In this document: positions 12,184-60,830 of the stretch, piece after piece | How positions within the stretch are numbered: the stretch's first letter is position 1 | How the letters are laid out: each line of letters starts with the position of its first letter | From: an uncultured Desulfosarcina sp. | GTDB taxonomy: Bacteria > Desulfobacterota > Desulfobacteria > Desulfobacterales > Desulfosarcinaceae | DNA: 64,000 nt | Assembly: GCA_963674945.2 (NCBI GenBank) | Contig: CAXXWQ010000004.1 | Span: forward strand, 384,001 to 448,000 | Reading direction: 5' to 3' | Translations under genes and position numbers: made by a program | Notes under the pieces: generated by a model | Seen by the model: the letters and a program-made list of their open reading frames with translations, nothing else | The model's database searches: none | Told to the model about the DNA's origin: nothing

Positions 12184-12636
12184 GTGAAAAAGATCGCTCT
12201 CGTTTTTCTGTTCAGCATGTGCATGGCCGGTACGGCAATTGCCCAGGGTGGACTGGTCAGTGTGAGAAGCAACCACAGTGTGCTGGTCACGGCAAACCGA
12301 CTAGAGAAGGCATTGAAGGAAAGAGAGATCACCGTGTTCGCACGAATCGACCATGCAAAAGGCGCCGATCGCATCGGGCAGCCCCTGGCGCCCACGTTAC
12401 TCGTCATTTTCGGAAGCCCTGCCATGGGTACGCCACTGATCCAGCGCAGCCGAACCATCGGTATCGATTTACCCTTGAAGGCCTTGATCTGGGAAGACCG
12501 TGCCGGACAGGTCTGGTTCACCTACAATACGCCGGATTACCTGACACATCGCCACGGGATCACCGAAATGGGGCCGCTTGTGGAAAAATTGGAACAAGCC
12601 CTGGCCGGCTTCGCCGCCGCAGCCACCCAGCCTTGA
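12184..12636 (+). CDS. Secreted DUF302-domain protein
   Basis: Signal peptide, VFARIDHA.GA, LLVIFGSP.MGTPL, IGIDLPLKALIWED; AGGAGG SD. Confidence 0.88.
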   Translation: MKKIALVFLFSMCMAGTAIAQGGLVSVRSNHSVLVTANRLEKALKEREITVFARIDHAKGADRIGQPLAPTLLVIFGSPAMGTPLIQRSRTIGIDLPLKALIWEDRAGQVWFTYNTPDYLTHRHGITEMGPLVEKLEQALAGFAAAATQP

Positions 12637-12645
12637 TGGTGCAGC

Positions 12646-15633
12646 GTGAACCGAAGCTCTTTTACCAACTATTTGCATCGAATCATCCATCGGCCCGCCT
12701 GGGTATTGGTACCCTGCGGCCTGATCACGCTCTTTTTCATCTGGCAGCTTCCCAAGCTCTCCTTTACCACATCCGTGTACGATCTCATCATCGAAGAGAT
12801 GGATGAATCGATTCGATACGACCAATTTTTGGCCCGGTTCGGCTCCGATGAAATCATACGAATCGTGGTGAAGGCCGACGATATCCTCGACCCGGCCACC
12901 TTTGCCAAGATCACCCAATTGTCCGATGCGGCAGCGCAGATCGACGGGGTGATCCGTGTAATCAGCCTGCCGGAGGTAAAGAAAAGTGTCGATCCGAAAA
13001 ACCAGTGGACAATGACCCAATTCGCATCGATGCTGATACCGGTTGAATTGTTCCACCGCAATCTGATTGCAGAAGATGGCAGAACCACCATCATCACACT
13101 GGTACTGGATGCCAGCACAAACAAGGACGATGCCATTTTCGCCGTCGAAGCGCTTTTTCGAACGACAGGCAAAGACCTGCGCCTCTATCAGACCGGCATG
13201 CCGCTGGTCTCGGAAGCGCTGGCGGCATACACGCGGCAGGACTTTTTCCACCTGACACCCATTACCATGGGGGTTATCGCCCTTCTCTTGACGGTGCTGT
13301 TCAGAAACCCCCAGTGCCTGGTTCTCCCCCTATCCTGTGTTACCCTGGCAATCTGCTGGACCTTCGGCCTGATGGCCACATGCGGTATTTCCGTCTCCAT
13401 GCTCACCATCATCGTTCCGGTCTTCCTGATCGCCGTGGGAACAGCCTATTGCCTGCATATCGCAAGCGAATATCTCCAACATGCAGCAAGCGGTGAATCG
13501 GCCCGTACCGCCGTGTTGACCACCTTCGACCGTCTTGCCTTTCCCGTCACGCTGGCCGTGGCCACCACCATATTCGGACTCGGCTCCCTAATCATCAATC
13601 GCATCGTCGCCATACAGGAATTCGCCATTTTCGCCGGTTTCGGCATGGTCAGCATGCTGATCATCGTTCTCACCTTTTTCCCGGCCATGCTCGCCTGCTT
13701 GCCGGCGCCCAACAGGATGAATACCGGCCAATCCTTCATCGATCGAAGTTGCAACCGATTGATAAAAACGATCGTCAACATAAATCTCAGGTATCGCAAA
13801 GCGACACTGATGGTCATGGGTGCCGTGTCCATCATCTGCGCGTTGGGCATGCTGCGGGTCCGCGTGGAAACCAATCCGGTGGCGTTTTTCAAGAGTGACA
13901 CAGAGGTGAGAAAAAACTTCACCGACTGCCACCGACACATGTCGGGAAGCTTTCCCATCAATGTGGTCATGTCCGCATCCGAGTCCGATTACTTTGAAAA
14001 TCCAGAAAACGTGGCCGCCATCGAAAGATTCCAAACATATCTGGACCGACTGCCCGGTGTGGACAAAACCATCTCTCTAGCCGACTACCTCAAGTTGGTA
14101 AACTACACCGTCAATGGATTCGATTCCCGTTTTTATACGCTCCCGCAAGAGGGTTATGAGCTTAGAATGTTGATGAACAATTTCAAGGTCCTTTTGGGAA
14201 ACGACCTGCTCAAACGATTCCTCAGCGCCGGCTACGACAAGGCCAACATTCTGATGCTGACCCACATTGCCAGTTCACGGCTTTTCCACGATACCCAGCA
14301 GCGGATACATACCCATGCAAAAAATGCCTTTCCCGATGACATTTCCGTGGATGTTACCGGCTTAGGGATTGTCATCGCCGCATCGAGCCACCTATTGACA
14401 TTGGGACAGATCAAGAGCCTTGCCATCTCCCTCGTTCTGATATTTTCCGTGATGGTACTTCTGTTTCTCTCCGGAAAAGTGGGCCTCATCGCAGTGGTTC
14501 CCAACCTGTTTCCCATCGTGGTGAATTTCGGCCTCATGGGTTTTTTGGACATTCCGCTGTCGGTGGCCACCAGCCTGATCGCCAGTGTGGCCATCGGTTT
14601 GGCCGTGGACGACACCATCCATTACCTCGTGCGCTACAACACGGAATTCAAGAAGGACTTGAACAAGGATCGGGCCATGCGGGAGACCCTCATGAGCGTG
14701 GGAAGGCCCATCGTGTTTACCTCGCTGACCATCAGTCTGGGATTTTCCGTTCTGATCTTCTCCCATTTTCAACCCACTGCCATCTTCGGTTTCCTAATGG
14801 TCGTAACCATGGTGTCTGCGCTTCTCGCCGATTTAATGCTGTTGCCGACCCTGATGATGCGCGTGGAATTGGTAACAGCATGGGATCTTCTGAAAATGAT
14901 GCCATCCTCCGGTGGCATTTCGCCGGCCACGGTCCATGAACTGAACCAGCCCCTTAATGCCATCAAGGTCGGGTCCGATTTTCTTACCATGATGGCACGG
15001 CAAGAAAAGCCACCGAGCCCGTCCCATCTGTCCAATGTCGCCCGGGAAATCGGCAATCAGGTCGCTAGGGCATCCCGGATTATCCAGCGATTGAGTGAAA
15101 TCGGACAGACACGGGGATTGGAAAAGGCCCCCCTTCAGGTCATCAAACCCATCAAGGATACACTGGCCGTGTTCGAAAACCAGTTGAAGCTGGAATCCAT
15201 CGGGCTGGATCTTTTCATCCAGCCCGAATTGCCGCCCATACGGGGTCATCGGAATCGTCTGGTTCAGGTTTTATGCAACCTTCTGGAAAATGCCAGAGAG
15301 GCCATCGCAGTCAGGAAGAACGCCGATGAAACGGAAAACAACGGCCATCGGATCACCATCGCGGCAAGAGAACAGAGCGGATCGGTTGTGATCACCGTCC
15401 GCGATACCGGTGCAGGCATTGCCGCCCACCACCTGCACCGCATCTTCGAGCCCTTCTTTACCACCAAATCCGATGGCCAGGGAAAGGGCCTGGGACTTTC
15501 CATCTGCCATGAAATCGTCCGGGACATGGGCGGCCGCATCACCGTGGAAAGCGATCCGGGGAATGAAACAACCGTGACGTTGATTTTTCCGGCCATCGCG
15601 TCAACCTTGCATTCGGGTGGACAAATAAAGTAG
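12646..15633 (+). CDS. MMPL/RND-family transporter fused to C-terminal histidine kinase (HisKA + HATPase_c)
   Basis: Two MMPL repeats (IAVGTAYCLH; IGLAVDDTIH), then H-box HELNQPLNAI, N-box NLLENAREA, G1 [17 protein letters not shown]2 GKGLGLSI in one 995-aa ORF. Confidence 0.88.
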   Translation: MNRSSFTNYLHRIIHRPAWVLVPCGLITLFFIWQLPKLSFTTSVYDLIIEEMDESIRYDQFLARFGSDEIIRIVVKADDILDPATFAKITQLSDAAAQIDGVIRVISLPEVKKSVDPKNQWTMTQFASMLIPVELFHRNLIAEDGRTTIITLVLDASTNKDDAIFAVEALFRTTGKDLRLYQTGMPLVSEALAAYTRQDFFHLTPITMGVIALLLTVLFRNPQCLVLPLSCVTLAICWTFGLMATCGISVSMLTIIVPVFLIAVGTAYCLHIASEYLQHAASGESARTAVLTTFDRLAFPVTLAVATTIFGLGSLIINRIVAIQEFAIFAGFGMVSMLIIVLTFFPAMLACLPAPNRMNTGQSFIDRSCNRLIKTIVNINLRYRKATLMVMGAVSIICALGMLRVRVETNPVAFFKSDTEVRKNFTDCHRHMSGSFPINVVMSASESDYFENPENVAAIERFQTYLDRLPGVDKTISLADYLKLVNYTVNGFDSRFYTLPQEGYELRMLMNNFKVLLGNDLLKRFLSAGYDKANILMLTHIASSRLFHDTQQRIHTHAKNAFPDDISVDVTGLGIVIAASSHLLTLGQIKSLAISLVLIFSVMVLLFLSGKVGLIAVVPNLFPIVVNFGLMGFLDIPLSVATSLIASVAIGLAVDDTIHYLVRYNTEFKKDLNKDRAMRETLMSVGRPIVFTSLTISLGFSVLIFSHFQPTAIFGFLMVVTMVSALLADLMLLPTLMMRVELVTAWDLLKMMPSSGGISPATVHELNQPLNAIKVGSDFLTMMARQEKPPSPSHLSNVAREIGNQVARASRIIQRLSEIGQTRGLEKAPLQVIKPIKDTLAVFENQLKLESIGLDLFIQPELPPIRGHRNRLVQVLCNLLENAREAIAVRKNADETENNGHRITIAAREQSGSVVITVRDTGAGIAAHHLHRIFEPFFTTKSDGQGKGLGLSICHEIVRDMGGRITVESDPGNETTVTLIFPAIASTLHSGGQIK

Positions 15634-15760: not shown

Positions 15761-16699
15761 ATGTCCAAGACCTTGTACTGGATTCATGGAGGAAGCTGCG
15801 GTGGAGACACCTGGTCCCTTATGAATTCGGATACTCCCAACCCCATCGAGATGTTCGCGGCATCCGACATCCATCTGCTCTGGCACCAGTCCCTCACCAG
15901 CCTCTCCCCCCAAGGGCTATCAAAACTGAATCGGGACATCCTGTCTGGCCATCAGGACCTGGATATTTTGTGCGTAGAAGGATCCATCATCAGCGGCCCC
16001 GACGGTACGGGCCGATTCGATATGCTGCCGGAAGGCCCCAAGAAGAATTTCATCCATGATCTGGCCATGCGGGCCCGCGTGGTCCTTGCCGTGGGAACCT
16101 GCGCCAGTTTCGGCGGCATCGGTGCCGACAGCGAAATCATGGCAGGTGGCCTTCAGTTCAACAAATGGGAAATGGGTGGGCTGTTGGGGAAAGACTTCGT
16201 TTCCGCCGGCGGTTACCCGGTCATCAATCTGCCCGGATGCCCCTGTCACTGCGATGTCGTGGTGGGCACGCTGTCGGCCATCGCCGACGATGTGCCCGTA
16301 TCACTGGGCCACTACAACACACCGACGGACTGGTACGGCATGATGGTACACCAAGGGTGCACGAGAAACGAATACCACGAGTATCGCGTCGAGGAGAAGC
16401 GTTTCGGCGAACGTGGATGTCTCTTTTTTTACATGGGCTGCCACGGTCCCCTGGCCACCGGCCCTTGCAACAAGGCCCTTTGGAACCGACGTTCCTCCAA
16501 AACACGGGTCGGAGTGCCATGTTTCGGCTGCACGCGTCCGGATTTTCCCCAGCAATACCCCTTTTTCGAGACACGCAACATCGAGGGCATCCCCATAGAG
16601 CTGCCCGACGGGGTGAGCCGCGCCCATTACATGGCCTACAAGGGGATGGCCGCAGCCGCGGCACCCAGGCGGCTGCTGGAAAGGAAAACCAACATCTAA
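15761..16699 (+). CDS. hupU: Group 2 (sensory-type, HupU-like) [NiFe] hydrogenase small subunit
   Basis: No Tat signal. GGSCGGD, VGTCASFGG, NLPGCP, HQGCTR, CLFFYMGC, PCFGC and a HupU-like C-terminal tail (GIPIELPDGV...). Start ATG 15761. Confidence 0.8.
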   Translation: MSKTLYWIHGGSCGGDTWSLMNSDTPNPIEMFAASDIHLLWHQSLTSLSPQGLSKLNRDILSGHQDLDILCVEGSIISGPDGTGRFDMLPEGPKKNFIHDLAMRARVVLAVGTCASFGGIGADSEIMAGGLQFNKWEMGGLLGKDFVSAGGYPVINLPGCPCHCDVVVGTLSAIADDVPVSLGHYNTPTDWYGMMVHQGCTRNEYHEYRVEEKRFGERGCLFFYMGCHGPLATGPCNKALWNRRSSKTRVGVPCFGCTRPDFPQQYPFFETRNIEGIPIELPDGVSRAHYMAYKGMAAAAAPRRLLERKTNI

Positions 16700-16729: not shown

Positions 16730-18226
16730 ATGGCAGCGATAAAGAAGATCATTCCCATCAATCGTGTGGAAGGAGACCTGGAGATCTACCTGGAACTGGA
16801 CCGGGATAATATCGTTCGGACCGCAAAGAGTGTGGGCACGATGTACCGTGGTATCGAAAATCTCATGTCGGGACGCTCTCCGCTGGACAGCCTGGTCATC
16901 ACGCCCCGCATCTGCGGAATTTGCACCACGTCCCATCTGAATGCCGCCGCAATGGCGCTGGATGCGGCCTATGGTGTTACGATCCCCGCCGATGCACAAC
17001 GGCTGCGCAACGTCACATTGATGGTCGAGCAACTGCAAAACGATCTTCGTCACCTCTTCCTGCTGTTCATGCCCGATTTCACACGCCCCCATTACGCCCA
17101 CCATCCTCTTTTTGAATCGGCCCAACATCGATATCTCCCGTTGAAGGGAAAGACCGCCATTGCAACCATTCGAGAGACGCAGAATCTGATCGAAATCATC
17201 GCCATCCTGGGAGGACAATGGCCTCACTCCTCTTTCATGGTTCCCGGTGGTGTGGTCTCCGTTCCCAACCGGAGCGACATTGCACAGTGCCGGCAAATCT
17301 TGACCCGGTTTCGCAGATGGTATGAAAAAAGGATACTCGGTTGCAGTATCGATCGGTGGAAGACGATCCGGAACGAGGAACAGCTACAAGCGTGGCTGGA
17401 CGAAAAAGAACAGCACAAGAACGGGGAACTGGGTTTTCTCACCCGAATCTGTCTCGACAGCAGACTCCACAAGATCGGCCGCAGCCACGACAGATTCATC
17501 AGCGCCGGAGGCCCCGAACTGCCAACCGATGACGGGAATCTAACGCCCCTGTTTCCCGCCGGTGTGGTCTCCATGGAAGGCACCGAGCCCTTGGATCTGG
17601 AAATGATCACCGAAGACGTCAGCCACTCTTTTTTCAAAGATACCGATGGTCATCCCTTCGTCAGCCGAACCATCGCCGATACCCACACGACCGACGAAGA
17701 AAAATACTCCTGGGCCAAAGCCCCTCGATACAAAGGCAAAGCCGCCGAAACCGGCCCCTTGGCCGACCTTCTCATGGCAGACGATCCTCTTTTCGCCTCC
17801 TGGGTACGCTGCCATGGTGCAAGTGTCTTCGTTCGAGAGCTTGCCAGGATGGTACGACCGGCCCTGACCCTTCCCGTAATCGAACAATCCCTGGCCGGGA
17901 TGGACCATGCCGATGCCAGATTTTACACCGACTCTCTTAAACCACTGTCGGCGAAAAGCGTCGGCACCGTTTCGGCCCCGCGGGGTATGCTGGGCCATTG
18001 GTTGGTCATTGAAAACGGAAAAATCGCCAACTACCAGGTGATTACTCCCACGACCTGGAATGGTTCGCCTCGGGACAAGGCGGGTATCTGCGGACCGTGG
18101 GAACAGGCGATCACAGGAACGCGGGTAGATGATCCCGACAACCCGGTAGAGGTGGAACAGATCGTTCGATCCTTCGACCCTTGCATGGTGTGTACCGTTC
18201 ATGCGATTCAAATGTCTTCAAGGTGA
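16730..18226 (+). CDS. hupV: Group 2 (sensory-type, HupV-like) [NiFe] hydrogenase large subunit
   Basis: NRVEGDL, L1 PRICGICTTSH, APRGMLGHW, L2 SFDPCMVCTVH with only 7 residues after the His. Confidence 0.85.
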   Translation: MAAIKKIIPINRVEGDLEIYLELDRDNIVRTAKSVGTMYRGIENLMSGRSPLDSLVITPRICGICTTSHLNAAAMALDAAYGVTIPADAQRLRNVTLMVEQLQNDLRHLFLLFMPDFTRPHYAHHPLFESAQHRYLPLKGKTAIATIRETQNLIEIIAILGGQWPHSSFMVPGGVVSVPNRSDIAQCRQILTRFRRWYEKRILGCSIDRWKTIRNEEQLQAWLDEKEQHKNGELGFLTRICLDSRLHKIGRSHDRFISAGGPELPTDDGNLTPLFPAGVVSMEGTEPLDLEMITEDVSHSFFKDTDGHPFVSRTIADTHTTDEEKYSWAKAPRYKGKAAETGPLADLLMADDPLFASWVRCHGASVFVRELARMVRPALTLPVIEQSLAGMDHADARFYTDSLKPLSAKSVGTVSAPRGMLGHWLVIENGKIANYQVITPTTWNGSPRDKAGICGPWEQAITGTRVDDPDNPVEVEQIVRSFDPCMVCTVHAIQMSSR

Positions 18227-18232
18227 AGTAAC

Positions 18233-19558
18233 ATGGTGCATGCGTCCAACATCCCCATTCAAATCCAGATGCCGATGCGAACCACCTATCGATGGCCCAA
18301 CCGCTGTCGGTATTGCCAGGATCGCGAAAATTGTCCGGTACAGGATTTGGTGATGGAAAACGAGATTCTCAAAGAGGAAATCCGGGTCTCCCGGGAATCT
18401 GCAGAGATTACTGCAAGCCTGGTGGTCAAACAATTCGAAGCCACTGAACGGATTTTGCATCGCTATCAGGTAGCCGAAGAGAAGTACCGCAGCCTGTTCG
18501 ACAGCGGCCCCAACCCGATTTTCGTGCTCGAACCCACCGATCAGCGGATCCTGGACGTCAACCCGGCGGCACTGGCAGCCTATGGATACACCAAGAAAGA
18601 GCTCTTGGGACGAACATTCGGCGAACTGGGGGAATTCGAGATCCCCGAATTCGGACTGAAATCGGAGGTGCCTTCCGACTGGACCGACGGCTGTGTCATC
18701 CACCAGAAAGCCCGGCACGCGAAAAAAGACGGTACTCCCATCTATATCCGGGTGAAAGCCTGCCCCATTACATACCAGGAGCGGGAGGCGCTGATCGTAG
18801 GTGCCACCGACGTCACCGAGGCCATCGAGAGGGATGCCCAGGTCTTTCAATCCAGCAAAATGCGAACCCTCGGAGAGATGTCCGCCGGAATGGCCCACGA
18901 ATTGACCCAACCGCTCAACGCCATCAAAATCGGCAACGACTACCTGCGGCTGAAAATCCAAAAGGGACAGGAGATATCCAGCAGTGAGATCATCAAAATC
19001 TCCACTGCGGTAGCCGAACAGGTGCAGCGCGCCACGGACATCATCAATCGACTGCGCGCTTTTGGTCGAAAGCCCGATTTCAAGAAACAGCCGCTGAATA
19101 TCAACGACATCGTCAAGAATGTGTTGAAAATTATCGGTAACCAGCTATCGCTGGCCAACATCAATTTGATTTACGATCTTTCGGCGGATCTTCCGCCAAT
19201 CATGGCCAACCCGAATCATCTGGAACAGGTTCTGTTCAACCTGGTGACCAACGCCCGCGATGCCATCGGACAGGAGGCCGAAGATGTCGGGGAAGAACGG
19301 CTCCGGGAACTCATCATCGAGACATATACGGAAAAGGAGATGGTGGTGTGTGCCGTGGCGGATACGGGTGCCGGCATTGCCGATGAAAACCGCGATAAAA
19401 TTTTCGAACCTTTTTTTACGACCAAGGAGGTCGGCAAGGGCATGGGATTGGGGCTTGCCATCACCTATGGCATCGTCCGGGACTACGGCGGGAACATCAT
19501 CGTCAAAAGCAAAGTCGGAAAAGGAACACGGTTCGAATTGCGGTTCCCGAAAGCATAA
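18233..19558 (+). CDS. Cytoplasmic PAS-domain sensor histidine kinase
   Basis: PAS ([33 protein letters not shown]), H-box [13 protein letters not shown]1, F and G2 boxes; 6 bp after the large subunit. Confidence 0.92.
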
Positions 19559-19583: not shown

Positions 19584-19955
19584 ATGACGAAAATTCTCAT
19601 CATCGATGACGAACAACCGTCCCTGCAGATGCTCAAACTCTATCTGGAGGTGTGTGGGCATGAGGTTTTCACGGCCGACAACGAATCCGACGGGATGTCC
19701 CTTTTCGACGTTCATCGCCCGCCCATCGTGCTCACGGATATCAAGATGCCGGGAAAGGACGGCTTTGCCGTGCTGCGGCAGGTCAAGGCCCTTGCACCTG
19801 CAACCCACATCATCGTCATTACCGGCCACGGTGACAGGGACTTGGCAAGGCAAGCCTTTGACTTCGATGCCAGTGCCTTTTTCAATAAGCCGTTGGACAC
19901 AGAGGCCTTGGAAGCCGAAATCAAACGGATCGAAAAGTCCCTGGAAAAAGAGTGA
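19584..19955 (+). CDS. Single-domain response regulator (receiver only)
   Basis: MTKILIIDDE, LTDIKMPGKDG phospho-Asp, ITGHGD, NKP. Start ATG 19584. Confidence 0.9.
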   Translation: MTKILIIDDEQPSLQMLKLYLEVCGHEVFTADNESDGMSLFDVHRPPIVLTDIKMPGKDGFAVLRQVKALAPATHIIVITGHGDRDLARQAFDFDASAFFNKPLDTEALEAEIKRIEKSLEKE

Positions 19956-19988: not shown

Positions 19989-21224
19989 TTATGTTGCGGT
20001 AAAATCGGACATAAAAGACGCCGGATCAATATAATCAAATGAAATGCCGAAATCGGTAAGCGCATTTCCTTGCAGGCCCAGAAAAATGGATGGATGCTTT
20101 TGCCGATGGATGTTGACTTTCGCATTAAATACACGACGGGTATACCCGTGCTTGTCCGAAAGCAGATATCGATTGATCTTGTAATGATCTCCCTTTCCCC
20201 TTTCTCCTGTGAGGTAGCATCGGATGTCTGAGATGTTGTCTCCGCCCAAGATGAGGTCGTTCAAACGGGACAATCGTTGCTGGGAACGTCCGATGAAATC
20301 GATGGTATCGACACCGATCCAGTCACCGGCATCGGAATCATACATGGAGGTATGGAAATCACCCATCAGAATCTGTCCTTCGCGCGCACTTTCACTCATC
20401 CGCGCGAGTTCGATGGTGACATCGCCCACAATGTAGCTGAATGTCGTTGGATTCAGCCCCTCGGACTGATAGAATTCGTAATGCCCCCCCACATGAAAGC
20501 AGGTACGTAACAACGGTGCCGTGTTCTTGCGTACCTTTTTCCGAGCGATCGCATTTTCCGCTAAAACCAGATGCATGAAGTGGTACAGATCCACGTTGGA
20601 ATGGATGCCACGATCCCGATTCCAGATGTAAAATCCGTCGCCGGTGTTGGTTCGAGCGAATCGAATCTCGACATCCAGATCCATAAGTTTGCTGTAGGCA
20701 GTATTGACGGAATAGGACAAGCTGTTGAGCTGCGTTACTTGTTCCAAGGGTGAATAGTGTGAAAATCCGACGATATCGAACAATGCCACCGCACGATCTT
20801 CCACCAGCGTGATGCTGTATCGCTTCACCAAAGAATCGATGGTCTCTTCCGGGAGCCCTTCTCCGGGTGTAAATGGCAAATCGATATGCAATGGGCTGGC
20901 ATGCAACAATCTTGCCGCATGCTCCAATTTCTCACCGGAGATCTTTTTGGGGCCGGATACGATCTTTTGAAGGAACGTTTTAAGACCGCTTTCGCCATCA
21001 CCGGATGAAAGCTTTGTGTCGGTGATAACTTCTCCGATGGCATAATGGGGAATGACGAGAAGATCCATTCCTTTGTAGCAAGGAGCCCACACGAGGATGA
21101 TATTTCGCCCGAGTGCCCAAAGGTCATACAGGAGATCATCCATGTGAAAGAGGTCGGCCTGGGCCACCCCATTTCCCGTCTCCTTTGCCTGAAACAATTG
21201 GGTCCATGATAATCGTTTCATCAT
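19989..21224 (-). CDS. Divergent class III nucleotidyl cyclase-like protein
   Basis: AVALFDIVGFS, TGDGFYI, LRTCFHVG, IVGDVTIELARM..A..GQIL follow the class III cyclase motif order. ATG 21224 overlaps the pqiC stop (ATGA). Confidence 0.62.
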   Translation of the reverse strand: MMKRLSWTQLFQAKETGNGVAQADLFHMDDLLYDLWALGRNIILVWAPCYKGMDLLVIPHYAIGEVITDTKLSSGDGESGLKTFLQKIVSGPKKISGEKLEHAARLLHASPLHIDLPFTPGEGLPEETIDSLVKRYSITLVEDRAVALFDIVGFSHYSPLEQVTQLNSLSYSVNTAYSKLMDLDVEIRFARTNTGDGFYIWNRDRGIHSNVDLYHFMHLVLAENAIARKKVRKNTAPLLRTCFHVGGHYEFYQSEGLNPTTFSYIVGDVTIELARMSESAREGQILMGDFHTSMYDSDAGDWIGVDTIDFIGRSQQRLSRLNDLILGGDNISDIRCYLTGERGKGDHYKINRYLLSDKHGYTRRVFNAKVNIHRQKHPSIFLGLQGNALTDFGISFDYIDPASFMSDFTAT

Positions 21225-21835
21225 TCTTCCTGAAAATTGTGAATGGCGCTTGCCATCTGGCGGCACAATTCGGCAAGAACCTCGCTGTGGGCCTCAGCCA
21301 GAGATTCGAACCCCTTGTCCGCCATGGGTACAGAAAGGATTGTCTGCCGTGGCCCGATGGCAATGCTTTTGTCGTCACGGAACAAGGACCAGACGGCGCT
21401 GAGCGACACCGTCTGGTCGGCATTTGCAATCAAGGAACCAATCTGGAGCGAAAGGGAGAAATCCGGTTTGCAGCCGATTGGCCATGGAACGTTCACGAAC
21501 TGGAAACGGGGCAATAACGTATTCAGGTTCTCTTCAATCAGTTGCTGCACCAATCGGTCCAAATAATTGGCCCACCGATGATAGGGAGAAATCTCCAGCC
21601 GATAGGCAGAGGTTCTTCTCATCATTTGTGTACGTGCAAGGTATCCCGGCACAACGACACTGCGAATACCGATGACCATGGGTGACAGGTCGCCTTCGGC
21701 AAAGTCGGATTCTGATGATGGTTCGACGGCGCTCAAGGTATAGTAGGAAACAGAAGGTGTGAAAGATCGGCACCCCGAAACGGCAAATATCAGTCCGGTA
21801 ATAAAAATAAGCGATGAGGACCGTATGCGACTCAC
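21221..21835 (-). CDS. pqiC: PqiC-family lipoprotein
   Basis: Lipobox VSGC, YYTL, PGYLAR, HRWA..L; follows pqiB with GTGA overlap. Confidence 0.82.
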   Translation of the reverse strand: MSRIRSSSLIFITGLIFAVSGCRSFTPSVSYYTLSAVEPSSESDFAEGDLSPMVIGIRSVVVPGYLARTQMMRRTSAYRLEISPYHRWANYLDRLVQQLIEENLNTLLPRFQFVNVPWPIGCKPDFSLSLQIGSLIANADQTVSLSAVWSLFRDDKSIAIGPRQTILSVPMADKGFESLAEAHSEVLAELCRQMASAIHNFQEE

Positions 21836-23514
21836 GGTTCTTCTCCTTTTCCGAAAACAATTGCGTCGGGATGCCTCTCCAGATAATCCGCCAAGGCTTC
21901 CACGGCCCGGGCGGTTTCCTGTAGTTCCAGAAGAAGGCGGTTCAGGTTTTCGAAGGCGGGTGCGCCCTGGTCCAACATGGTCGCAGCACTGGATAAGACC
22001 GCTTTCCCTTGCGCCAGTGATTCTTTCGCCTGGTCGAGTACGCCGTTCATCTTTATCAATGTCCCGTCGTTGAAATCCCCGGTGACCTTCTTAAATTCGG
22101 CAAAACTTTGATCGATATTGTGTATGGCACTTTCCAGGGATTCGGAGCCGATCATCGCCGTTACCTGCCGGGCGGCTTCACGGATTTCCCCGATTGTCTC
22201 ATCCAGCGGGAGACGTTCCAGCCGAGCCAGGAACCGTTTGGCCGTGGCAGCGATCTCCTCCACCGTGTTGGGAATCGTGGGCAGTACCGGGTAGGCGTCC
22301 GTTTTCAGGATTTTTTGGTAGGGGGCATCGGGGTAAATGCGCAGACACACGTAACTCTGACCGGTAATCAGGTTTCCCGTGCGCAACTGGGCGCGAAGCC
22401 CTTTTTCCACCAACTCCTCCACCAGCTTAAATCCGGGGACGGCGGATTCTCCGGCGAATTCGATCCGATCCGGTTCGATGGCGATGAGAACCGGAATCCG
22501 AAAGGTCAGAGCGTCCTGATTAAACAATAGCCGGATATTGACCACCTCTCCGATCTTGATGCCATAAAATTCCACTGGCGCCCCCGCCGACAGGCCCCGA
22601 ACGCTCTCTTCGATATAAAGGAGATAGTACACCCGGTAGCTGTAACTTGCGGCATTGGCGGCTTCACGATTGTCGTACAGGGTAAAAATATGGTTGGCAG
22701 ATGGCGCCGGCATCGTTTGTTGTCCGTCTGCCGTAAAAAAAGATATCCCCCCCACAAGCAAACTGGCCAAAGAGGGGGTATCGACACGCACCCCTTCCGC
22801 TGTGATGTTCACGTTCAATCCACTGGTGTTGTAAAACCGGGAATCCCGTTTCACCTGAACGTCGTAGGGCGACTTGACGAAAATTTCCAGAAGAACGCCG
22901 GTTCCGTCTTTGGCCATGTCCACGTCAGTGACGCGCCCCACCTTGACCTGGCGGTAATATACCGGTGAACCGATGTCCAGGGATCCCAATTGTTCGGCCC
23001 TCAGTTTGAACTGACGACCCGGTGTTTCCGGCAGAATGGCCGGCGGTTTTTCCCTTCCCTCGAAGCGATATACAGTTTTGCCCGGATCACCGGGAATCAT
23101 ACCGATATAGGCACCGGTAAGCAAAGTACCAATACCGGAGACCTCTCCCACGGCCACACGCGCCCGAACCACCCAGAACTTTGTATTTTCAGTTAAATGA
23201 ACGGCGACCTCCCTGCTCATGGCCGCCGTCACCAGTACTTGAGAAAGGTCGTCGCTGAGCTGTATGTTATCGACCTTGCCCACGGTGACATCTTTGTACT
23301 TGATTTGGGTTTTTCCGGGAACCAGGCCTTCTGCAGATTTGAATATGATGGTGATGGTAGGCCCGGTTTCCCGAACACTCTTAACGCCCAGCCATATGGC
23401 AACCAAGGCCGCGATAAGCGGAATCAACCACACGATGGAAAAACGCCGCCCACGTTGGATCTCGGGTTCGGGAATTGTTCGGTCTTCAACCGCGTCAACG
23501 GGCAATTGCGTCAT
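21832..23514 (-). CDS. pqiB: PqiB intermembrane transport protein (three MCE/MlaD domains)
   Basis: SIVWLIPLIA, AEGLVPGKT.IKYKDV.VG, LGSLDIGSPVYYR, VRGLSAGAPVEFYG, LERHPDA. Confidence 0.92.
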   Translation of the reverse strand: MTQLPVDAVEDRTIPEPEIQRGRRFSIVWLIPLIAALVAIWLGVKSVRETGPTITIIFKSAEGLVPGKTQIKYKDVTVGKVDNIQLSDDLSQVLVTAAMSREVAVHLTENTKFWVVRARVAVGEVSGIGTLLTGAYIGMIPGDPGKTVYRFEGREKPPAILPETPGRQFKLRAEQLGSLDIGSPVYYRQVKVGRVTDVDMAKDGTGVLLEIFVKSPYDVQVKRDSRFYNTSGLNVNITAEGVRVDTPSLASLLVGGISFFTADGQQTMPAPSANHIFTLYDNREAANAASYSYRVYYLLYIEESVRGLSAGAPVEFYGIKIGEVVNIRLLFNQDALTFRIPVLIAIEPDRIEFAGESAVPGFKLVEELVEKGLRAQLRTGNLITGQSYVCLRIYPDAPYQKILKTDAYPVLPTIPNTVEEIAATAKRFLARLERLPLDETIGEIREAARQVTAMIGSESLESAIHNIDQSFAEFKKVTGDFNDGTLIKMNGVLDQAKESLAQGKAVLSSAATMLDQGAPAFENLNRLLLELQETARAVEALADYLERHPDAIVFGKGEEP

Positions 23515-24142
23515 CACGTCTCTCCCGTGCATCCCAGATCAATCTTGGATCAAAGTTCATGGCGGCAAGCATGGTAAGGACAACCACGGCGGCAAAATAA
23601 ATAATACCGGCGCCCGCTTCGATGGTGGACACATAGCCGAGGCGAACCAGCGCTACCAGCACCGTAACCACAAACACATCCAACATTGACCATCGTCCGA
23701 TCAATTCCGTGATGCGAAACAGCCGTGTCCGCTCTTCGGGCCGCCAATCAGAACGTCTTTGGATCGAAATCAATAATCCCATGAGAACGACTAATTTTGC
23801 AATGGGTACGATGATACTGGCAACGAAAATAATCAATGCGATCCCCCAGGATCCACTGCTCATAAAGTAGCTCACACCGCTAACAATCGTATCTGCCTGG
23901 CTGCTGCCAAAATAGGTGGTAACCGTCACCGGCAATATGTTTGCGGGAACATAGAAGATCAACGCAGCGATTACCAAAGCCCAGGTTCGTTCAATGCTGT
24001 TTGGTTTTCTACAATGGAGAGAAGATCCGCAGCGGGGGCATCGGACCCGCTTCCCGCTTTCGTTGATCGGTGGCCGTTGAACCAGCAGGTTGCACATGTG
24101 ACAATTGAGTAGTCCTGCATCTTTGGCCGTGAAGGATTTCAT
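23495..24142 (-). CDS. pqiA: Paraquat-inducible protein A (C-terminal-half paralog)
   Basis: CHMC..CPRCG, PANILP, IGRWSMLDVFVV, FDPRLIWD. Confidence 0.9.
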   Translation of the reverse strand: MKSFTAKDAGLLNCHMCNLLVQRPPINESGKRVRCPRCGSSLHCRKPNSIERTWALVIAALIFYVPANILPVTVTTYFGSSQADTIVSGVSYFMSSGSWGIALIIFVASIIVPIAKLVVLMGLLISIQRRSDWRPEERTRLFRITELIGRWSMLDVFVVTVLVALVRLGYVSTIEAGAGIIYFAAVVVLTMLAAMNFDPRLIWDARERRDDAIAR

Positions 24143-24756
24143 CGGGCTTTTTCCATCTTCATCCAAATAGTGAACGGATCCAATGAAACATTGACGGCGG
24201 CCACAACAAATACCAAGACAAGAAATGAAAAAAGCGCCGGCCCCGGAACGATGGTGGCCATCTTGGCAAGTTTTACCACCGAAACAAGAATTCCGAGAAA
24301 AAAAATCTCAGGCATGCTCCATTGCCGAAGGGACAGAGCGAAACGAAATACATGACGGGAGGCCGGCAGGCGGCCACCGACCTGTATGGGACAGAGAACA
24401 TAGATCAACGAGCCCAAAAAGAGACCTGGGAAAAGGATGCTGGTGAGCAGAACGAGAAGGGCCAACCCAGGCATGTGTTGTTTGGAAAGGATGATCGTGC
24501 CGGTGATCAAGGCAGTTTCCAGTGTGTTTCCCTGGGACACCAATGAAAGGAACGGGTAGGTGTTGGCAATGAGCAACAGTATTAATCCGGTGATGGCCAA
24601 TGCGAACGTCCGGTTGATGGAACGGGGGAAGCACGCATACAACATGGCGCCGCATCGGACGCATCGGGCTTTGCTTTTGCGGTGCAGGGACTGGTCCTTG
24701 ATGCGATGTAATAAATCACATTCGTGACAGGCGATCAGCGTTTGTGTCGTGGCCAC
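24139..24756 (-). CDS. pqiA: Paraquat-inducible protein A (N-terminal-half paralog)
   Basis: IACHECDLL, CVRCG, IANTYPFL, WSMPEIFFLGILVSVVKL; stop overlaps next ATG. Confidence 0.9.
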   Translation of the reverse strand: MATTQTLIACHECDLLHRIKDQSLHRKSKARCVRCGAMLYACFPRSINRTFALAITGLILLLIANTYPFLSLVSQGNTLETALITGTIILSKQHMPGLALLVLLTSILFPGLFLGSLIYVLCPIQVGGRLPASRHVFRFALSLRQWSMPEIFFLGILVSVVKLAKMATIVPGPALFSFLVLVFVVAAVNVSLDPFTIWMKMEKAR

Positions 24757-34068: not shown

Positions 34069-34944
34069 TCACGACTGCGGGGAAACATCCACCATGACGG
34101 AGAGGGTGTGCATACCACCGCCCATGACCACCCCTTTTACCGGGGTGACGTCACCGTAATCTCGGCCCCACGCCAGCGTAATGTGCCGATTCCCGGGAAT
34201 CAGGTTGTTGGTGGGGTCCAGATCCACCCATCCCTGATCCGGGACATAGAGGGAGAGCCAGGCGTGGGAGGCATCGGCGCCCACGAGCTTGGGTTTGCCC
34301 TGGGGCGGCAGGGTCTCCAGGTAGCCACTCACATACCGGGCTGCAAGGCCGATGCTCCGCAGACAACCGATGGCCAGATGAGCAAAATCCTGGCACACGC
34401 CCTTGCGGCTTTCAAGCACCTGCGCGATGCGCGTGTCGATGGTGGTGGCATTCTTGTCATAGGTGAATTCGGAAAAAATTCGTCCCATGAGGTCCAGCGC
34501 ACCTTCCATGATCGACCGGCCCGGAGGAAAGGAAGGCCGTGTGTAGTCGTTGACAGTTCCATCCAAGTCGATCATGGGACTTTCGAAAACGAACTGGTAA
34601 GCGTCGAGGTCGGCCGGACGACTGTGGGTCGCCAATTGTTCGGCGACCTCTTCCCAGGAAGGCGACGAAAGGACATCAACCTGCCCTTCCCCAGGGGTTT
34701 CCACATGGCTTTCGGCGATCATGGTCAGTTCGTCGTGGGGGTGCTGTATCATGAACATCTGTACCGTGTTTCCGAAGAAATCGGTCCTGCAGTTCTCATA
34801 CTGTGGCTCGGGCGAGATGGCCAGATGATGGCGGGTGACCCGCTGGGTATCGGTCGTTCTGGGGGACAGGATCAGCTCGTTCTGGGAGAGAGAGGCCGGT
34901 TCCGAATAGCGGTATACCGTTTTGTGAATAATCCGGTACTTCAT
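34069..34944 (-). CDS. Transglutaminase-like protein (bacterial N-terminal domain + core)
   Basis: MKYRIIHKTVYRY, GVCQDFAH, ARYVSGYL, SHAW, DLDPTN, GRDYGDV. ATG 34944 overlaps upstream stop. Confidence 0.92.
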   Translation of the reverse strand: MKYRIIHKTVYRYSEPASLSQNELILSPRTTDTQRVTRHHLAISPEPQYENCRTDFFGNTVQMFMIQHPHDELTMIAESHVETPGEGQVDVLSSPSWEEVAEQLATHSRPADLDAYQFVFESPMIDLDGTVNDYTRPSFPPGRSIMEGALDLMGRIFSEFTYDKNATTIDTRIAQVLESRKGVCQDFAHLAIGCLRSIGLAARYVSGYLETLPPQGKPKLVGADASHAWLSLYVPDQGWVDLDPTNNLIPGNRHITLAWGRDYGDVTPVKGVVMGGGMHTLSVMVDVSPQS

Positions 34945-37445
34945 GGTGCACCGCCACCTTGAATCGTCGAAAAATGCGGCGTCGTCGGAACCCGGGTAAG
35001 GTAATGCGCCGATACATGCCGGGAGAATCGGGCCAACCGTTTCTCCATGGTTTCGAAAAAGTCGAGCAAAACGGCCCGGCCTTCGCTCTCCGCCTTGCAT
35101 GTCAATTCACGCAAATCCAACAGACGAACGGCGGTGAGCATCTCGAGGGAGAGGCGCTCTTCGGCGGTGGCAAATCTCCGTTCTTCCTGCCGGGGCAGCT
35201 TCTCCACGTGTGCGGCGATGCGATGACACTGAAAGGCGAGGGACTTGGGATTGCTTTCATCCGCCACCAGAAGGTCCATGACCGGGGCAAGCTGAAAGGC
35301 CGTCCGGTAGCGGCTTCGGTAGGTCATGATGCTGTCGGACACCTCCAGCAAGGCCTCTAATGCGCTTCTGGACTGGTCACAGACCCGTGGCAAACCGAAT
35401 CGAAGCAGTTGGATCTGATGGATGGCCCGTTCCACCCGACGCCCCATGTCCATAAACCGCCAACCCAACCCCCGGGTCATACTTTCCATGGCAAGACCGG
35501 AAAAGGCGCTCAATGTAAACAGGGTTTCGTCGAGAAGATCCAATGGATCATTGTCTTCCCTTTCCGCAAACCGGTCCAACCGGTTGACGACCCGCCAACA
35601 GTCCAGTGAGAGGCGATCGCGAACGTTGCGTGCCGCCTCTCGGACCCTTTCGAGTACGGCCGCCACGGTTTCGGTTCGATCCAATGCAAAAAGGGCTTCC
35701 TTCAATTGACCAGACAGGGTACGGAAACGAGGAATCTCAGCGCTATCCTCGGGCATGGTGGAAACAACCCCTTCCGAACGAAGCAGGTTCAGCAGAAATG
35801 GCAATTCGGGAATGTCGATCAGGCGCATCTCACCGGAAAGACGGCGGTAAACACAACGCAAAAGGCGGATCATCCCCTCCGCCCGCTCGAGGTAGCGTCC
35901 CATCCACAACAGGTGGTCAGCCACCCGGCTGGGCAGATCGCTGCCACGCTTGAACCCATCCACGGCCTGAAGGCTGCCCATGAGGCTGAACGGAACCACA
36001 GGCCCATCGGAAAAAACCCATATGTCCTTGCTCTGCTGCAATTCCGGTGCACCGTACAGCAGTGTGGAAACGTCTGCCGCGGTGATGGCCAGACCACCGG
36101 GCATGACGGCGTATCCGTCTTCGATGGCACAGGCAAATACACGCAAGACGGTATATCGGGATTCGACGCGGCCGGACCGCCAGGCCGGAACCACCGACGG
36201 CGCCACCGGTTCAAGCCCCATGAATCCGTGGGGTGCTGCCAAGATTGCTTCCGCCATATTCTCGGAGTTTGGCGTCGCAGACCATCCCATGGCTCCTTGC
36301 ACCGTTAACCGGTCGAGATTGGCCAGCACATGATCGCAATCCGGCTTCGTGCCGCACCACCAACGCGGATGGTTTTCCATGAGCAGATCGCTGTCCAGGA
36401 AATGCCGGCAGAGCCGGGGAAGAAAGACCGACAACACCGGCGTGTCCACCCATCCGCTGCCCACGGGATTGACCATATCCACCCGCCCTTCCCGGCAGGC
36501 CTGAAGGAGGCCGGCCACACCGCCACCGGTCTCCCTGCGTATGGCGAAGGGATCGCTTCCATCGTCCGGAATATGGCGGAAGATCGCCTCCACCGGTTCC
36601 AGACCGGCCAGTTTTTTCAAGAAGACCTTGCCGTTTCGCACCGTGAGGTCCTGCCCTTCCACCAGGGGATACCCCAGATACCGGGAGAGCAGCGCGTGTT
36701 CAAAATAGATACGACTTTCCGGCCCGGGGCTGAGCAGGACGATGCTCGGATCGTCTCTTCCCGGTTCGGACCTTCGGGCGATGTTCTGATGAAAAGCATG
36801 AAAAAAAGGGGCGAGTCTTCGAATCTGGGTCTGGTGATACAGTTCGGAAAAAACCCTGGAGATGACGATACGGTTTTCCAGGACGTACCCGAGGCCGGCC
36901 GGATTGTTTCCATAATCGCGCAGGACGGAAAATCTGCCGTCGACGCCGCGGTACAGGTCGGCGGCGTAGTAGGTCAGATACCTCTTCCCAACAGGGACGA
37001 TGCCATGGCAGGCGCGCAAGAAATTGGGATTGGCATAGATCAGCTCCGGAGGCAGATGCCCCTTTTGAATCAGATTCTGGGGACCGTACACGTCGGCAAG
37101 GATTCGATCGAGCAGACCGGCCCGCTGGATCAGCGCCGTCTCGATTGTCGACCATTCGGCGGCGGTGATGGGCAGGGGCAGCATATCCAGTGCCCAAGGC
37201 GTTCCCCGACCGCCGGCGTCGTCGAAGGGATTGAAGGTGGCGCCATCCTCGTGGCGCATACGTCGGACCCTTTCCTGGCGCCCATCGAGAAGAGCCGATG
37301 TGGTAGAACCAAATGCGGTTGCCAATGGGAGCCAATGGGAACGCGGGCCTTGGCCTCCGAAGGCCTCGTTAAAGGCGTGATCGGGGAAAAAGCCGGCTTC
37401 AAACTGGATCGGTACCCCATTGGCGGCACTATCGGTCATCCCCAC
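34941..37445 (-). CDS. Circularly permuted type 2 ATP-grasp fused to alpha-E (DUF403) domain
   Basis: PAGLGYVLENR, YFEHALLSRYLG..LVEG.DL, VMPGGL, SKDIWV, then SRVAD.L.WMGRYLERAE and GRRVERA. Confidence 0.9.
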   Translation of the reverse strand: MGMTDSAANGVPIQFEAGFFPDHAFNEAFGGQGPRSHWLPLATAFGSTTSALLDGRQERVRRMRHEDGATFNPFDDAGGRGTPWALDMLPLPITAAEWSTIETALIQRAGLLDRILADVYGPQNLIQKGHLPPELIYANPNFLRACHGIVPVGKRYLTYYAADLYRGVDGRFSVLRDYGNNPAGLGYVLENRIVISRVFSELYHQTQIRRLAPFFHAFHQNIARRSEPGRDDPSIVLLSPGPESRIYFEHALLSRYLGYPLVEGQDLTVRNGKVFLKKLAGLEPVEAIFRHIPDDGSDPFAIRRETGGGVAGLLQACREGRVDMVNPVGSGWVDTPVLSVFLPRLCRHFLDSDLLMENHPRWWCGTKPDCDHVLANLDRLTVQGAMGWSATPNSENMAEAILAAPHGFMGLEPVAPSVVPAWRSGRVESRYTVLRVFACAIEDGYAVMPGGLAITAADVSTLLYGAPELQQSKDIWVFSDGPVVPFSLMGSLQAVDGFKRGSDLPSRVADHLLWMGRYLERAEGMIRLLRCVYRRLSGEMRLIDIPELPFLLNLLRSEGVVSTMPEDSAEIPRFRTLSGQLKEALFALDRTETVAAVLERVREAARNVRDRLSLDCWRVVNRLDRFAEREDNDPLDLLDETLFTLSAFSGLAMESMTRGLGWRFMDMGRRVERAIHQIQLLRFGLPRVCDQSRSALEALLEVSDSIMTYRSRYRTAFQLAPVMDLLVADESNPKSLAFQCHRIAAHVEKLPRQEERRFATAEERLSLEMLTAVRLLDLRELTCKAESEGRAVLLDFFETMEKRLARFSRHVSAHYLTRVPTTPHFSTIQGGGAP

Positions 37446-37490
37446 ATCCCTTTGCTCATGGTACGTGTCGAGAAGCGGATCGTACCCCGA

Positions 37491-40400
37491 TCATCGCCGC
37501 AAATCAAGGGTATAGGGAAAGTCGGCGTTGATTTCCAGGGCCGGAATACCGCCGATCTCACCGGGTGTATGGCCACCGGGAACGAATCGGGCGTGGCGCC
37601 TTCCTTCCGCCTCCCAGCCGTTCACCGGAAACGTTTCGTAGTTACGTCCGCCCGGGTGTCCTACGTGGTAGGTGCAACCGCCCACGGCCCGTCTGGACCA
37701 GCGGTCGTATATGTCCATCACCAACGGCGTATGCACACCGATGGTGGGGTGGAGGCAGGAATGTGGCTGCCAGGCACGGTATCGGACACCGGCCACATAT
37801 GTACCATCGACGTCGGTGGGCTGCAGGGGAACCCTTCTTTTGTTGCACAAAACGATGTATCTGCCTTCGGTCATGCCCGATACCTTCACCTGGAGCCGTT
37901 CCACCGAGGAGTCCACGTATCGTGCCGTTCCCCCCGAACTGGGTTCCTCGCCCAGTACGTGCCAGGGTTCCAGCGCATGGCGAAGCTCCATCTCCATCCC
38001 CCGGTAGGCGACCCGCCCGTAGATGGGAAAACGGAACTCGAAATGGGGGTGAAAGAAATCCAACGAAAGAGGGAAACCGGCCTTGTTAAGAACTTCAAGT
38101 ACATCTGCGAAATCCATGTGTACCATTTCCGGCAGCATGAACCGGTCATGCAGCCGAGTGCCCCACCGCACCAGTTTCTGCCGGTATGGGGTCTGCCAGA
38201 ACCAGGTCACGAAAACACGAAGGAGAAGTTGCTGTGCCAGACTCATGCGGGCATGGGGGGGCATTTCAAAGGCGCGTAGCTCAAGCAGCCCCAACCGGCC
38301 GGCACTGCTGTCCGGCGAATAGAGCTTGTCGATGCAAAACTCCGCCCGGTGGGTATTTCCCGTCACATCCACCAGCAGATGACGAAACAACCGGTCCACC
38401 AGCCACGGCGGACACACCCGGTCCGGTCCCGTCTGCCGATCCAGCTCGGCGAAGGCGATCTCCAGTTCGTAGAGACTGTCATGGCGGGCTTCGTCGATAC
38501 GCGGCTGCTGGCTGGTGGGGCCGATGAAGAGTCCTGAAAAGAAAAAACTCAGGGATGGATGGTTGTTCCAGAAGGTGACGAGACTGCGCAGCAGGTCCGG
38601 CCGGCGAAGAAAGGGGCTGTCCGCCGGCGTTGCGCCACCGATGACGATGTGATTGCCGCCGCCAGTACCCGTATGGCGGCCGTCCAGCATGAACTTCTCC
38701 GTCCCCAGGCGGCATTGCCGGGCCGATTCGTACAGGTCCGTGGTGGATTCGACCATCTCTTGCCAACTGCCCATGGGCTGGATATTCACCTCCATCACCC
38801 CGGGATCCGGCGTGATCTTCAGGTATTTCAGTCGTGGATCGAAGGGCGGTGTATACCCTTCGATGATGACGGGAAGCCCCATTGCCGCAGCTGTGGCCTC
38901 GATGGCGGCAACCAGCTCCAGGTATCCGGTAAGGGTCATGATGGGCGGCATGAATACATGGAGACGTCCCTGTCTGGGTTGAACGCAAAGGGCCGTACGC
39001 ACGACCCAGGCGGCCGATTCACCCGCCACCGGTTTCGGCGCGGCAAAGGGTCCGGGTTGGGTACGCACCCCCTCTTGGATTTTTTCTCCTTCGGCGCCCA
39101 ATATGAATCGCTGCTCCCCATGAAGATCGGGCAATGGTCCGCGATCGGCCATGGGATCTAGGGGGTGATCAAAGGGAAAATCGGTTTCCGAAACCCACGG
39201 CAGTGATTCCAGGGGCAGTCGCAAACCGGCCGGACTGTCGCCGGGTAGCAGAAACATGTGTTCGCCCCGAAAAGGCCAGGGCCCGCTTTTCCAGGAACCG
39301 TATTGTAAGGGAAGAACATATCCGACCACCGCTCCCAGGCCTCTTTCGAAAGTGTCGGCCATGCGCCTTCGCGCCTCCGGGTCGGAGAGTTTCGGATCGG
39401 TTGGGCATACATTGACCGGAAGCCGCTGTTCCTTGTGCAGGTAGTAAAAAATATCTTCGTAACTCTCCCGGATGAAACGACGGTGCACATCCAACCGATC
39501 GGCCAGGTGCTCGATGAACCGTTTCGCCTCTCCTGCCCCGAACCCATACGCCACTGCGGTATCGGCGATCCACCGATCATCGTTCCAGACGGGTTTTCCA
39601 TCCTCGCGCCAGTAACACGAAAGCGCCCACCGCGGCAGGGATTCGCCCGGGTACCACTTTCCCTGTCCGTAATGCAAAAGCCCGCCCGGCGACCACCGCT
39701 TTCTCAGCCGTTTGATCAACGTTTCGGACAATTGCCGTTTTTCCTCCCCCAGAGCCTCGGTGTTCCATTGGGCGCCGTCCATGTCGTCGATGGAGACGAA
39801 GGTGGGTTCGCCCCCCATGGTCAGGCGTACGTCCGATTTTTCCAACATCCGGTCCACACGGTCCCCCAAATCCACGATGGCCTGCCATACCGAATCGGGA
39901 TAGGGTTTCGTGGAGCGGGGCTCCTCTCGAATGCGGCGCACTTGCATGGTGTGGGAGAAGTCCACCTTGCATTCGTCCACGGCACCGGTGATGGGAGCCG
40001 CTCGCTGGGGTTCCGGCGAACATGCAAGGGGGATGTGCCCCTCACCGGCAAATAGCCCGGAAGTGGGATCCATGCCCACCCATCCGGCACCGGGCAGGTA
40101 GACCTCGGTCCAGGCATGGAGATCGGTAAAATCCGTTTCGGGCCCCGAAGGGCCGTCCAGGGACTTGATGTCCGGGGCCAGTTGGATGAGGTATCCGGAG
40201 ACGAAGCGCGCGGCCAGCCCGAGATGGCGCAGGATGTTGACCAAGAGCCAGGCCGAGTCCCGGCAACTGCCGCTTTTCAACGAGAGTGTCTTCTCGCAAC
40301 TTTGCACGTTGGGTTCCATGCGGATGAGATACCGAATGTCGTCTTTCAACCGGCGGTTCAAATCCACCAGGAAATCGATGATGTGCTTTTTGCGACGGTC

Positions 40401-40802: not shown

Positions 40803-40811
40803 GGGTCTCCT

Positions 40812-41792: not shown

Positions 41793-41831
41793 TCTATCTT
41801 CTCCTATGATCAAGACGGATTCGAAATGATG

Positions 41832-56777: not shown

Positions 56778-56909
56778 CGCAAACAAACTCCATTCACAAA
56801 AGGTTATCGTTGCAGCAACGAGTGAGTCGAAATCTGCTCAGCCACGATAAAAATCGCAAAACGATCTTCAGCGGGTTGTCTCAACTCACAACTTCCGTAT
56901 ATCAATGTT

Positions 56910-60812: not shown

Positions 60813-60830
60813 CGCAGGTAAACTCCGCTC

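Follow-up and report, generated by a model that had tools for sequence, protein, structure and literature searches.

An RND-type membrane protein fused to a histidine kinase is conserved in Desulfobacterales and genomically linked to hydrogen enzymes

This study concerns an open reading frame (ORF) of an uncultured Desulfosarcina sp. that encodes an RND (MMPL/HAE3-like) transporter body and a histidine kinase in one chain of 995 residues. It occupies positions 12646..15633 of a 64,000-nucleotide stretch of DNA, here called the window; positions are on the forward (+) strand unless marked (-). Profile, alignment and structural-model evidence support the fusion, which is real, conserved and uncharacterised, and the ancestry of its two halves and its linkage to neighbouring genes are likewise established. 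The genomic context points to hydrogen, not to lipid or to the DUF302 protein encoded upstream. Our tentative proposal, on which we stand a little short of evenly divided, is that the fusion may act as a second-input kinase in a circuit of two kinases and one receiver that is connected with hydrogen metabolism in Desulfobacterales, sharing the receiver encoded at 19584 with an H2-sensor kinase. An earlier interpretation made from the sequence alone (the original prediction) is partly supported; it overlooked the connection with hydrogen sensing and uptake and also the sister proteins with cyclic-nucleotide-binding (cNMP) and degenerate GGDEF tails, which keep reverse signalling possible.

The ORF begins with GTG and has no internal stop. 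A Pfam scan of the product found MMPL in two stretches (152 bits) and HATPase_c at residues 868-983; HisKA, at 763-818, scored 20.5 bits, under the Pfam cut-off of 26.9, and neither HAMP nor PAS gave a Pfam match at E<=0.01. The RND body (residues 1-741; 12646..14868) has the two membrane repeats and two periplasmic domains of the RND superfamily and its MMPL members, as seen by Pfam, by an AlphaFold model built on a 36-sequence alignment (mean predicted local distance difference test score 81.5) and by a fold search, in which the body matched MmpL4/5, MmpL3, HpnN and NPC1 with a best TM-score of 0.79 over the target. Its scores against the curated HAE3 (TIGR00921; 219.6 bits, cut-off 351.9) and HpnN (TIGR03480; 108.6 bits, cut-off 751.85) models fall below both cut-offs. 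The kinase core (DHp plus CA; 14899..15600, with His764 at 14935-14937) carries the sequence features of a class I histidine kinase, namely the H-box histidine with its acidic residue and the N, G1, F and G2 boxes. Between body and core lies the junction (residues 740-763; 14863..14934), a VELVTxWD helix that gives way to the invariant Pro753 and a Gly-rich break ahead of the H-box. In the model the last membrane helix ends at about residue 739, a short helix spans 743-755 and, after a break, the H-box helix starts at about 760; the model is least certain at the junction. A complete transporter fold and a kinase are present in one conserved chain, as in transporter-fused sensor kinases of the Ks-Amt5 and CbrA type. 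The architecture given in the original prediction, a two-repeat MMPL body joined to HisKA/HATPase by a short connection free of HAMP and PAS, with every kinase box in place, is borne out in each of these respects. Databases name the protein either an MMPL transporter or a sensor kinase.

The fusion is not an artefact, since it recurs in all of the listed homologs and in 28 genomes and since two contigs bridge the junction. A whole-length search gave 2439 matches, and MMPL and HATPase_c are both present in each of the best 120 (identity 52-100%), one of which is the window's own protein. In an alignment of this protein with the 119 other listed homologs, H764, N882, D920, G922, G924, F937, G946, G948 and G950 are invariant in all 120 rows and E765 is kept in 118; the spacing from P734 to H764 is the same throughout, and residues 726-750 are among the best conserved of the protein (mean column identity 0.89). 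The ratio of nonsynonymous to synonymous substitution is 0.07-0.19 in body and kinase alike (9/9 pairs). At the junction, where a check by read mapping had been proposed, support comes from a contig of run X1, which may be the source sample and crosses it with no differences, and from a contig of run X5, from a second study, which crosses it with 69 differences in 954 bases and no gaps (approximately 93% identity). In a class-level sample of 301 genomes, with only two candidates scored per genome, the fusion matched through the kinase in 28, all belonging to one order, the Desulfobacterales; named homologs are assigned to Desulfosarcina, Desulfobacteraceae and Desulfobacterales. None was found outside the order, a 301-genome sample of the phylum giving a junction-spanning match only in the window genome and one other of the same order. 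Annotations of a cultured Desulfosarcina variabilis strain include a close relative, which makes the system open to testing. There is next to no chance that the fusion is an assembly error or a chance read-through: the broken copies of two relatives (L108:4883-7165, with an in-frame loss of residues 639-878, and L005:3391-6364, with two frameshifts), which may themselves be assembly errors, lend that idea some colour, and the homolog set and the bridging contigs refute it.

Downstream of the fusion, the window encodes the small (15761..16699) and large (16730..18226) subunits of a group-2c-like sensory [NiFe] hydrogenase, a soluble PAS histidine kinase (18233..19558; 441 aa, one PAS domain) and a single-domain receiver recognized by Pfam (19584..19955; Asp52), which is the predicted substrate of both kinases. 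In the fetched stretches around 29 fusion loci, a PAS-kinase match, a receiver and hydrogenase or maturation genes were each found in 26, and the sensor pair in 22. The sensor large subunit is present in 25 of the 28 fusion genomes compared with 20 of 273 others, and the uptake hydrogenase large subunit in 27 of the 28 compared with 142 of 301 overall. Among the 45 genomes with a sensor large subunit, 25 operons use this PAS kinase and 20 use large hybrid kinases or cyclase-like genes. The fusion gene is present in all 25 genomes of the former type, 24 matching through the kinase and one carrying an in-frame deletion; it occurs in one of the 20 genomes of the latter type, elsewhere in the genome, and another of these has a body cut by the contig end. 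All 28 fusion genomes contain the partner PAS kinase, which is also found without the fusion, mostly in other classes. Bodies with GGDEF tails have uptake or maturation genes nearby in 11/17 loci, and close bodies from other classes are encoded directly after the uptake large subunit (4/4). The uptake and maturation cluster of the window genome is far off (C4:3304744-3314669), which implies that the fusion moved with the sensor block; 89 of the 142 uptake-positive genomes have no close body, so the body is not required for the uptake enzyme. In a second arrangement, seen at loci L048, L049, L051, L052 and L060, the neighbours of the fusion are a periplasmic binding protein (Peripla_BP_6), a receiver and a related kinase; the sensor hydrogenase is close by in some cases, and elsewhere or absent in others.

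The kinase half can be traced to the same operon. In a quick, midpoint-rooted tree, all 29 fused cores group in a single clade (SH-aLRT 100), which branches from among 27 neighbouring PAS-type kinases and lies apart from 20 other kinases of the window genome. The PAS kinase at 18233-19558, representing the donor lineage, is the closest kinase of the genome to the fused core (42% identity; next 33%). The two H-boxes are identical at 13/20 positions, a kinship already suspected in the original prediction and matched at no more than 11 positions by the other 51 rows with a parsed H-box. At six DHp positions that we take, from EnvZ work, to be specificity positions, the two kinases of the window read NAVGDF and NAIGDY.

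The body half has relatives with other tails. Sister proteins recovered by whole-length search share it at 39-57% identity, and all 17 scanned sister tails combine a cNMP-binding with a GGDEF-like domain; none has GG[D/E]EF, 16/17 have the cNMP motif and 16/17 have RxxD, which we take to be a cyclic di-GMP site. Across 131 near-full-length representatives of the wider family, 59 tails are cNMP, 11 cNMP plus GGDEF, 5 other and 1 a kinase, and 55 proteins have none; four close bodies in other classes carry cNMP tails. Trp-Asp at 746-747 is found in 54/59 cNMP-tailed proteins versus 0/55 tailless ones, and the short helix after the twelfth transmembrane helix (TM12) belongs to the tailed forms; the VELVTxWD junction helix is, judged by sequence, an inheritance from cNMP-tailed relatives. 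Mean identity over TM8-12 within and between the kinase- and GGDEF-tailed groups is 0.68, 0.70 and 0.65, and the graft point is placed at column 745, the only one that distinguishes the bodies. The kinase tail thus appears to have taken the place of a cNMP plus dead-GGDEF tail, the body being nearly the same with either. The simplest reading, although not a proven one, is a single event in which the PAS kinase of the operon donated one copy of its core to the body, where this copy supplanted a nucleotide-binding tail. Repeated tail swaps were considered, a first body tree needing at least three changes, and rejected: an approximately unbiased test on 31 of 82 rows failed to reject a single clade (p 0.56), the constrained tree being 4.66 log units better. 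Members of the sister family (L061-L076, L043 and L127-L132) often lie in hydrogenase uptake or maturation operons, and some copies adjoin a CHASE2 adenylate cyclase gene.

What the body itself does is best approached through its acidic motifs and its gene neighbours. In MmpL proteins, Asp/Tyr segments of TM4 and TM10 carry protons, and TM10 mutations abolish MmpL3 function (PMC6463170). The fusion departs from this antiporter pattern of Asp/Tyr pairs: its TM4 motif, GTAYCLH (13438..13458; invariant Cys269), has Ala-Tyr where MmpL4 has Asp-Tyr, and TM10 has Asp655-Asp656 (14608..14613), candidate proton-relay acids kept in 117 and 118 of the 120 aligned rows. The original prediction, which reported the acidic motif, had overlooked the Ala that stands for Asp in its TM4 copy. 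We rejected the idea that the lost TM4 Asp makes the body transport-dead. All 131 near-full-length relatives share the loss at that column, including the stand-alone ones (acid in 0/55; no acid at 267-269 in 32/55), so the change is a subfamily trait, not specific to the fusion, and cannot be read as loss of transport. Like the stand-alone relatives, the fusion retains the TM10 acids, His271, His659 and Asp729. The AmeABCD export cassette typically includes a LolA-like partner (PMC6394551). A tblastn search with two LolA-like queries found no such gene at 45 loci of the body's clade, which lacks the adjacent gene that marks AmeABCD-type lipid/terpene export; the same search found one at 6/12 loci of distant relatives, and other MMPL genes of the window genome have one nearby. 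The window also encodes two tandem, unusually long MMPL proteins (1180 and 1178 aa) at 53244-63168 (-), behind a LolA-like gene and a gene for a 483-aa protein without Pfam match; the group reads as a conventional export cassette with large insertions. A role for the body in handling a lipidated hydrogenase was also rejected, an N-terminal Cys occurring in none of 20 uptake large subunits with a visible start.

We favour a transceptor as the leading reading. On the model of HoxBC-HoxJ (PMC10073562), cytoplasmic H2 would be reported by the group-2c-like hydrogenase together with the PAS kinase. The fused protein would monitor a condition of the membrane or periplasm that is connected with the periplasmic uptake hydrogenase. 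When the RND body binds a ligand, or when protons pass the TM10 aspartates, the short post-TM12 helix might shift; this movement would alter the kinase/phosphatase balance at His764, and both kinases would act on Asp52 of the 19584 receiver. Near-identical H-box surfaces and the kinase-core tree support the sharing of that receiver, which the original prediction had put forward for a phosphotransfer test and which is a likely substrate. Kinase activity, the shared receiver, the outward direction and the nature of the signal are what we infer here, and a hydrophobic ligand would also be compatible with a second-input kinase. More broadly, and with considerable doubt, a bacterial RND-fold receptor may have evolved inside periplasmic hydrogenase operons, where it would sense either the proton gradient or the condition of the periplasmic hydrogenase. 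It may have been wired to varied cytoplasmic modules, in one form a cNMP domain with a dead GGDEF and in another a kinase derived from a copy of the H2-sensor kinase. If this is true, a single receiver in the kinase form would let the cell weigh cytoplasmic H2 against membrane energisation, the fusion would be the first RND receptor kinase and the group 2c hydrogenases would gain a defined circuit.

Several observations weigh against the second-input proposal, in which the direction of signalling is the weak step. Pro753, present in 120/120 aligned rows, and glycines interrupt the helix running into the H-box. Inward signalling is suggested by the ancestral tails, which are modules that bind ligands, and a body repurposed as a sensor might be expected to differ from its relatives, yet column 745, in the junction, alone separates the 28 kinase-tailed from the 17 GGDEF-tailed bodies. 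The sensor hydrogenase is absent from three fusion genomes and a periplasmic-binding-protein gene lies beside the fusion in 6/29 loci, so H2 is not the sole input; and because the 28 fusion genomes are kin, from one order, the co-occurrence counts overstate independence.

Inward regulation is the main rival, made a strong one by those ancestral tails and by a body left unchanged on fusion, and we consider it rather unlikely. The body would then move cargo for the function or assembly of the periplasmic hydrogenase, with the tail as its switch: relatives would use cyclic nucleotides, and here an H2 phosphorelay would toggle transport through the fused DHp, which might be phosphorylated, dock the receiver or pair with the PAS kinase. 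The constraint on the body, the same under either tail, fits such a regulated transporter, as do the receptor-like sister tails, the retained TM10 acids and histidines with Asp729, and the position of GGDEF-tailed bodies by maturation or uptake genes. A pure dock, however, would not need an invariant ATP-binding site, the LolA-like partner is missing, no cargo is indicated, and most uptake-hydrogenase genomes (the 89/142 above) do without a close body. Improbable, in our judgement, is a tether without coupling, whereby the body transports alone and the fusion merely anchors a duplicate kinase/phosphatase at the membrane, where this would serve as a buffer for the receiver or form pairs with the PAS kinase. 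In favour of such a tether are the proline/glycine break and the low confidence of the model at the junction, and the kinase of CbrA is dispensable for transport, histidine having no effect on its kinase activity (PMC7096432); a plain tether would nevertheless drift, and both the fixed junction length and the conservation of residues 726-750 argue otherwise. Very improbable is a transceptor for lipid or another hydrophobic ligand, working with the secreted DUF302 protein and having no special hydrogen link. The fold of the body is nearest to lipid and siderophore exporters, and the DUF302 gene (12184..12636; Pfam) ends 9 bp upstream of the fusion in the window, which had led to DUF302 being put forward as a partner. 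Against this stand the strong hydrogenase linkage and the finding of DUF302 near the fusion in only 4/29 loci, directly adjacent in 2 and all in the window's genus or in Desulfosarcina cetonica; DUF302 was rejected as a partner on this count and is probably not part of the system.

Transporter-kinase fusions are already known for the Amt and SLC5 folds. Ks-Amt5 of Candidatus Kuenenia stuttgartiensis likewise sets a whole transporter fold on DHp-CA without PAS, HAMP or STAC, and is thereby a precedent for a transporter-kinase fusion that lacks a linker domain; it differs in its Amt fold, its trimeric state and its known ligand, ammonium, which it was shown to bind but not to translocate (PMC5764959). 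The SLC5-STAC kinases CbrA and CrbS also join transporter and histidine kinase in one chain, but have an SLC5 fold together with STAC and PAS, and CbrA transports while its kinase is described as unresponsive to the substrate (PMC7096432). With the HAE3 exporters HpnN and AmeD (PMC6394551) and MmpL3/4/5 (PMC6463170) the body shares the 12-helix RND fold, the two periplasmic domains and an acidic TM10; it parts from them in scoring below the HAE3 and HpnN cut-offs, in lacking the TM4 Asp and a LolA-like partner gene and in bearing a cytoplasmic kinase tail. The fusion also matches a Patched chain weakly in sequence. Patched is a eukaryotic RND-fold signalling protein that acts through sterol transport and has no fused kinase, so that the comparison is an analogy only.

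The sensory block resembles the group 2b systems HoxBC-HoxJ-HoxA and HupUV-HupT-HupR in that a PAS kinase and a response regulator follow a sensory [NiFe] hydrogenase (PMC10073562; PMC5037454), and is unlike them in its group-2c-like L2 motif, its two kinases, one of them membrane-bound, and its bare receiver without a DNA-binding domain. By its L2 motif and its sulfate-reducing hosts the hydrogenase is like [NiFe] group 2c (PMC5037454; PMC4853749); unlike the listed members, it is kinase-linked and travels with the RND-kinase. A search of the openly accessible literature turned up no account of an RND-kinase fusion or of the hydrogen circuit proposed here, and neither 'RND' nor 'MMPL' appears in the main text of PMC11887813 or in PMC5109826. 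The statement that no bacterial RND-kinase fusion had been characterised holds for the literature covered, and the RND example is apparently undescribed. That its gene is kept with hydrogen-sensing and hydrogen-using enzymes in many sulfate reducers suggests an undescribed wiring of a membrane protein into hydrogen control. Either signalling direction would be new for RND proteins, the circuit offers purifiable parts for the group 2c hydrogenases (two kinases, one receiver and the sensor hydrogenase) and the sulfate reducers of the host order matter for the cycling of carbon and sulfur in sediments.

Further features of the window were noted. The small-subunit ORF extends from 15734, and relatives of 312 aa fit the ATG at 15761. 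The large-subunit L2 motif, SFDPCMVCTVH, is one residue (Met for Leu) off the group 2c consensus SFDxCLVCTVH (PMC4853749), in a comparison of motifs only; 18 of the other 20 sensor-type copies compared have the exact consensus. Group 2c is listed in HydDB as putative, of undetermined role and linked to diguanylate cyclases (PMC5037454), a link that the window does not display, its downstream genes being the PAS kinase and the receiver. Relatives of the 441-aa PAS kinase are approximately 560-770 aa long, one that was scanned having three PAS stretches; contigs of run X1 match the window's kinase without differences. The receiver is only 41% identical to its best match in its own genome, and no output target for it was identified. 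A promoter and terminator scan (7 and 13 sites, compared with 5.9 and 9.2 in shuffles) was uninformative. A look-up for expression listed no RNA data set containing the region, which speaks neither for nor against expression. Convergent with the receiver gene is one for a 425-aa protein without Pfam or NCBIfam match (19989-21266 (-)), whose motifs, by eye, we take to resemble those of a class III nucleotide cyclase. It is followed at 21221-24756 (-) by genes for a lipoprotein, a protein with three MlaD domains and two short membrane proteins, a group resembling a PqiABC-type cluster, and at 34069-43262 (-) by a cluster of circularly permuted ATP-grasp, Alpha-E, transglutaminase-like and DUF2126 genes.

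Outside the window, in the gene for the uptake [NiFe] large subunit of the same genome (G000:C4:3305905-3307554), codon 64 is an in-frame TGA. It stands at the second Cys position of the N-terminal RxCGxC motif, a residue that we take to be a Ni-Fe bridging ligand; the C-terminal DPC motif keeps its Cys. On codon evidence, this TGA is a candidate selenocysteine at an unusual ligand position, and the genome contains tRNA-SeC and SelA. In known [NiFeSe] enzymes, selenocysteine is at the Cys530-equivalent position (PMC7324405). The uptake TGA is also present at loci L001, L002, L041, L042, L043, L045, L047, L071, L108, L127 and L129. Among 20 near-complete uptake copies at the fetched loci, 11 have TGA, each with the same 8-bp hairpin approximately 18 bases later, and the hairpin is absent from the 9 with TGC or TGT; at L129, TGA occupies both Cys positions.

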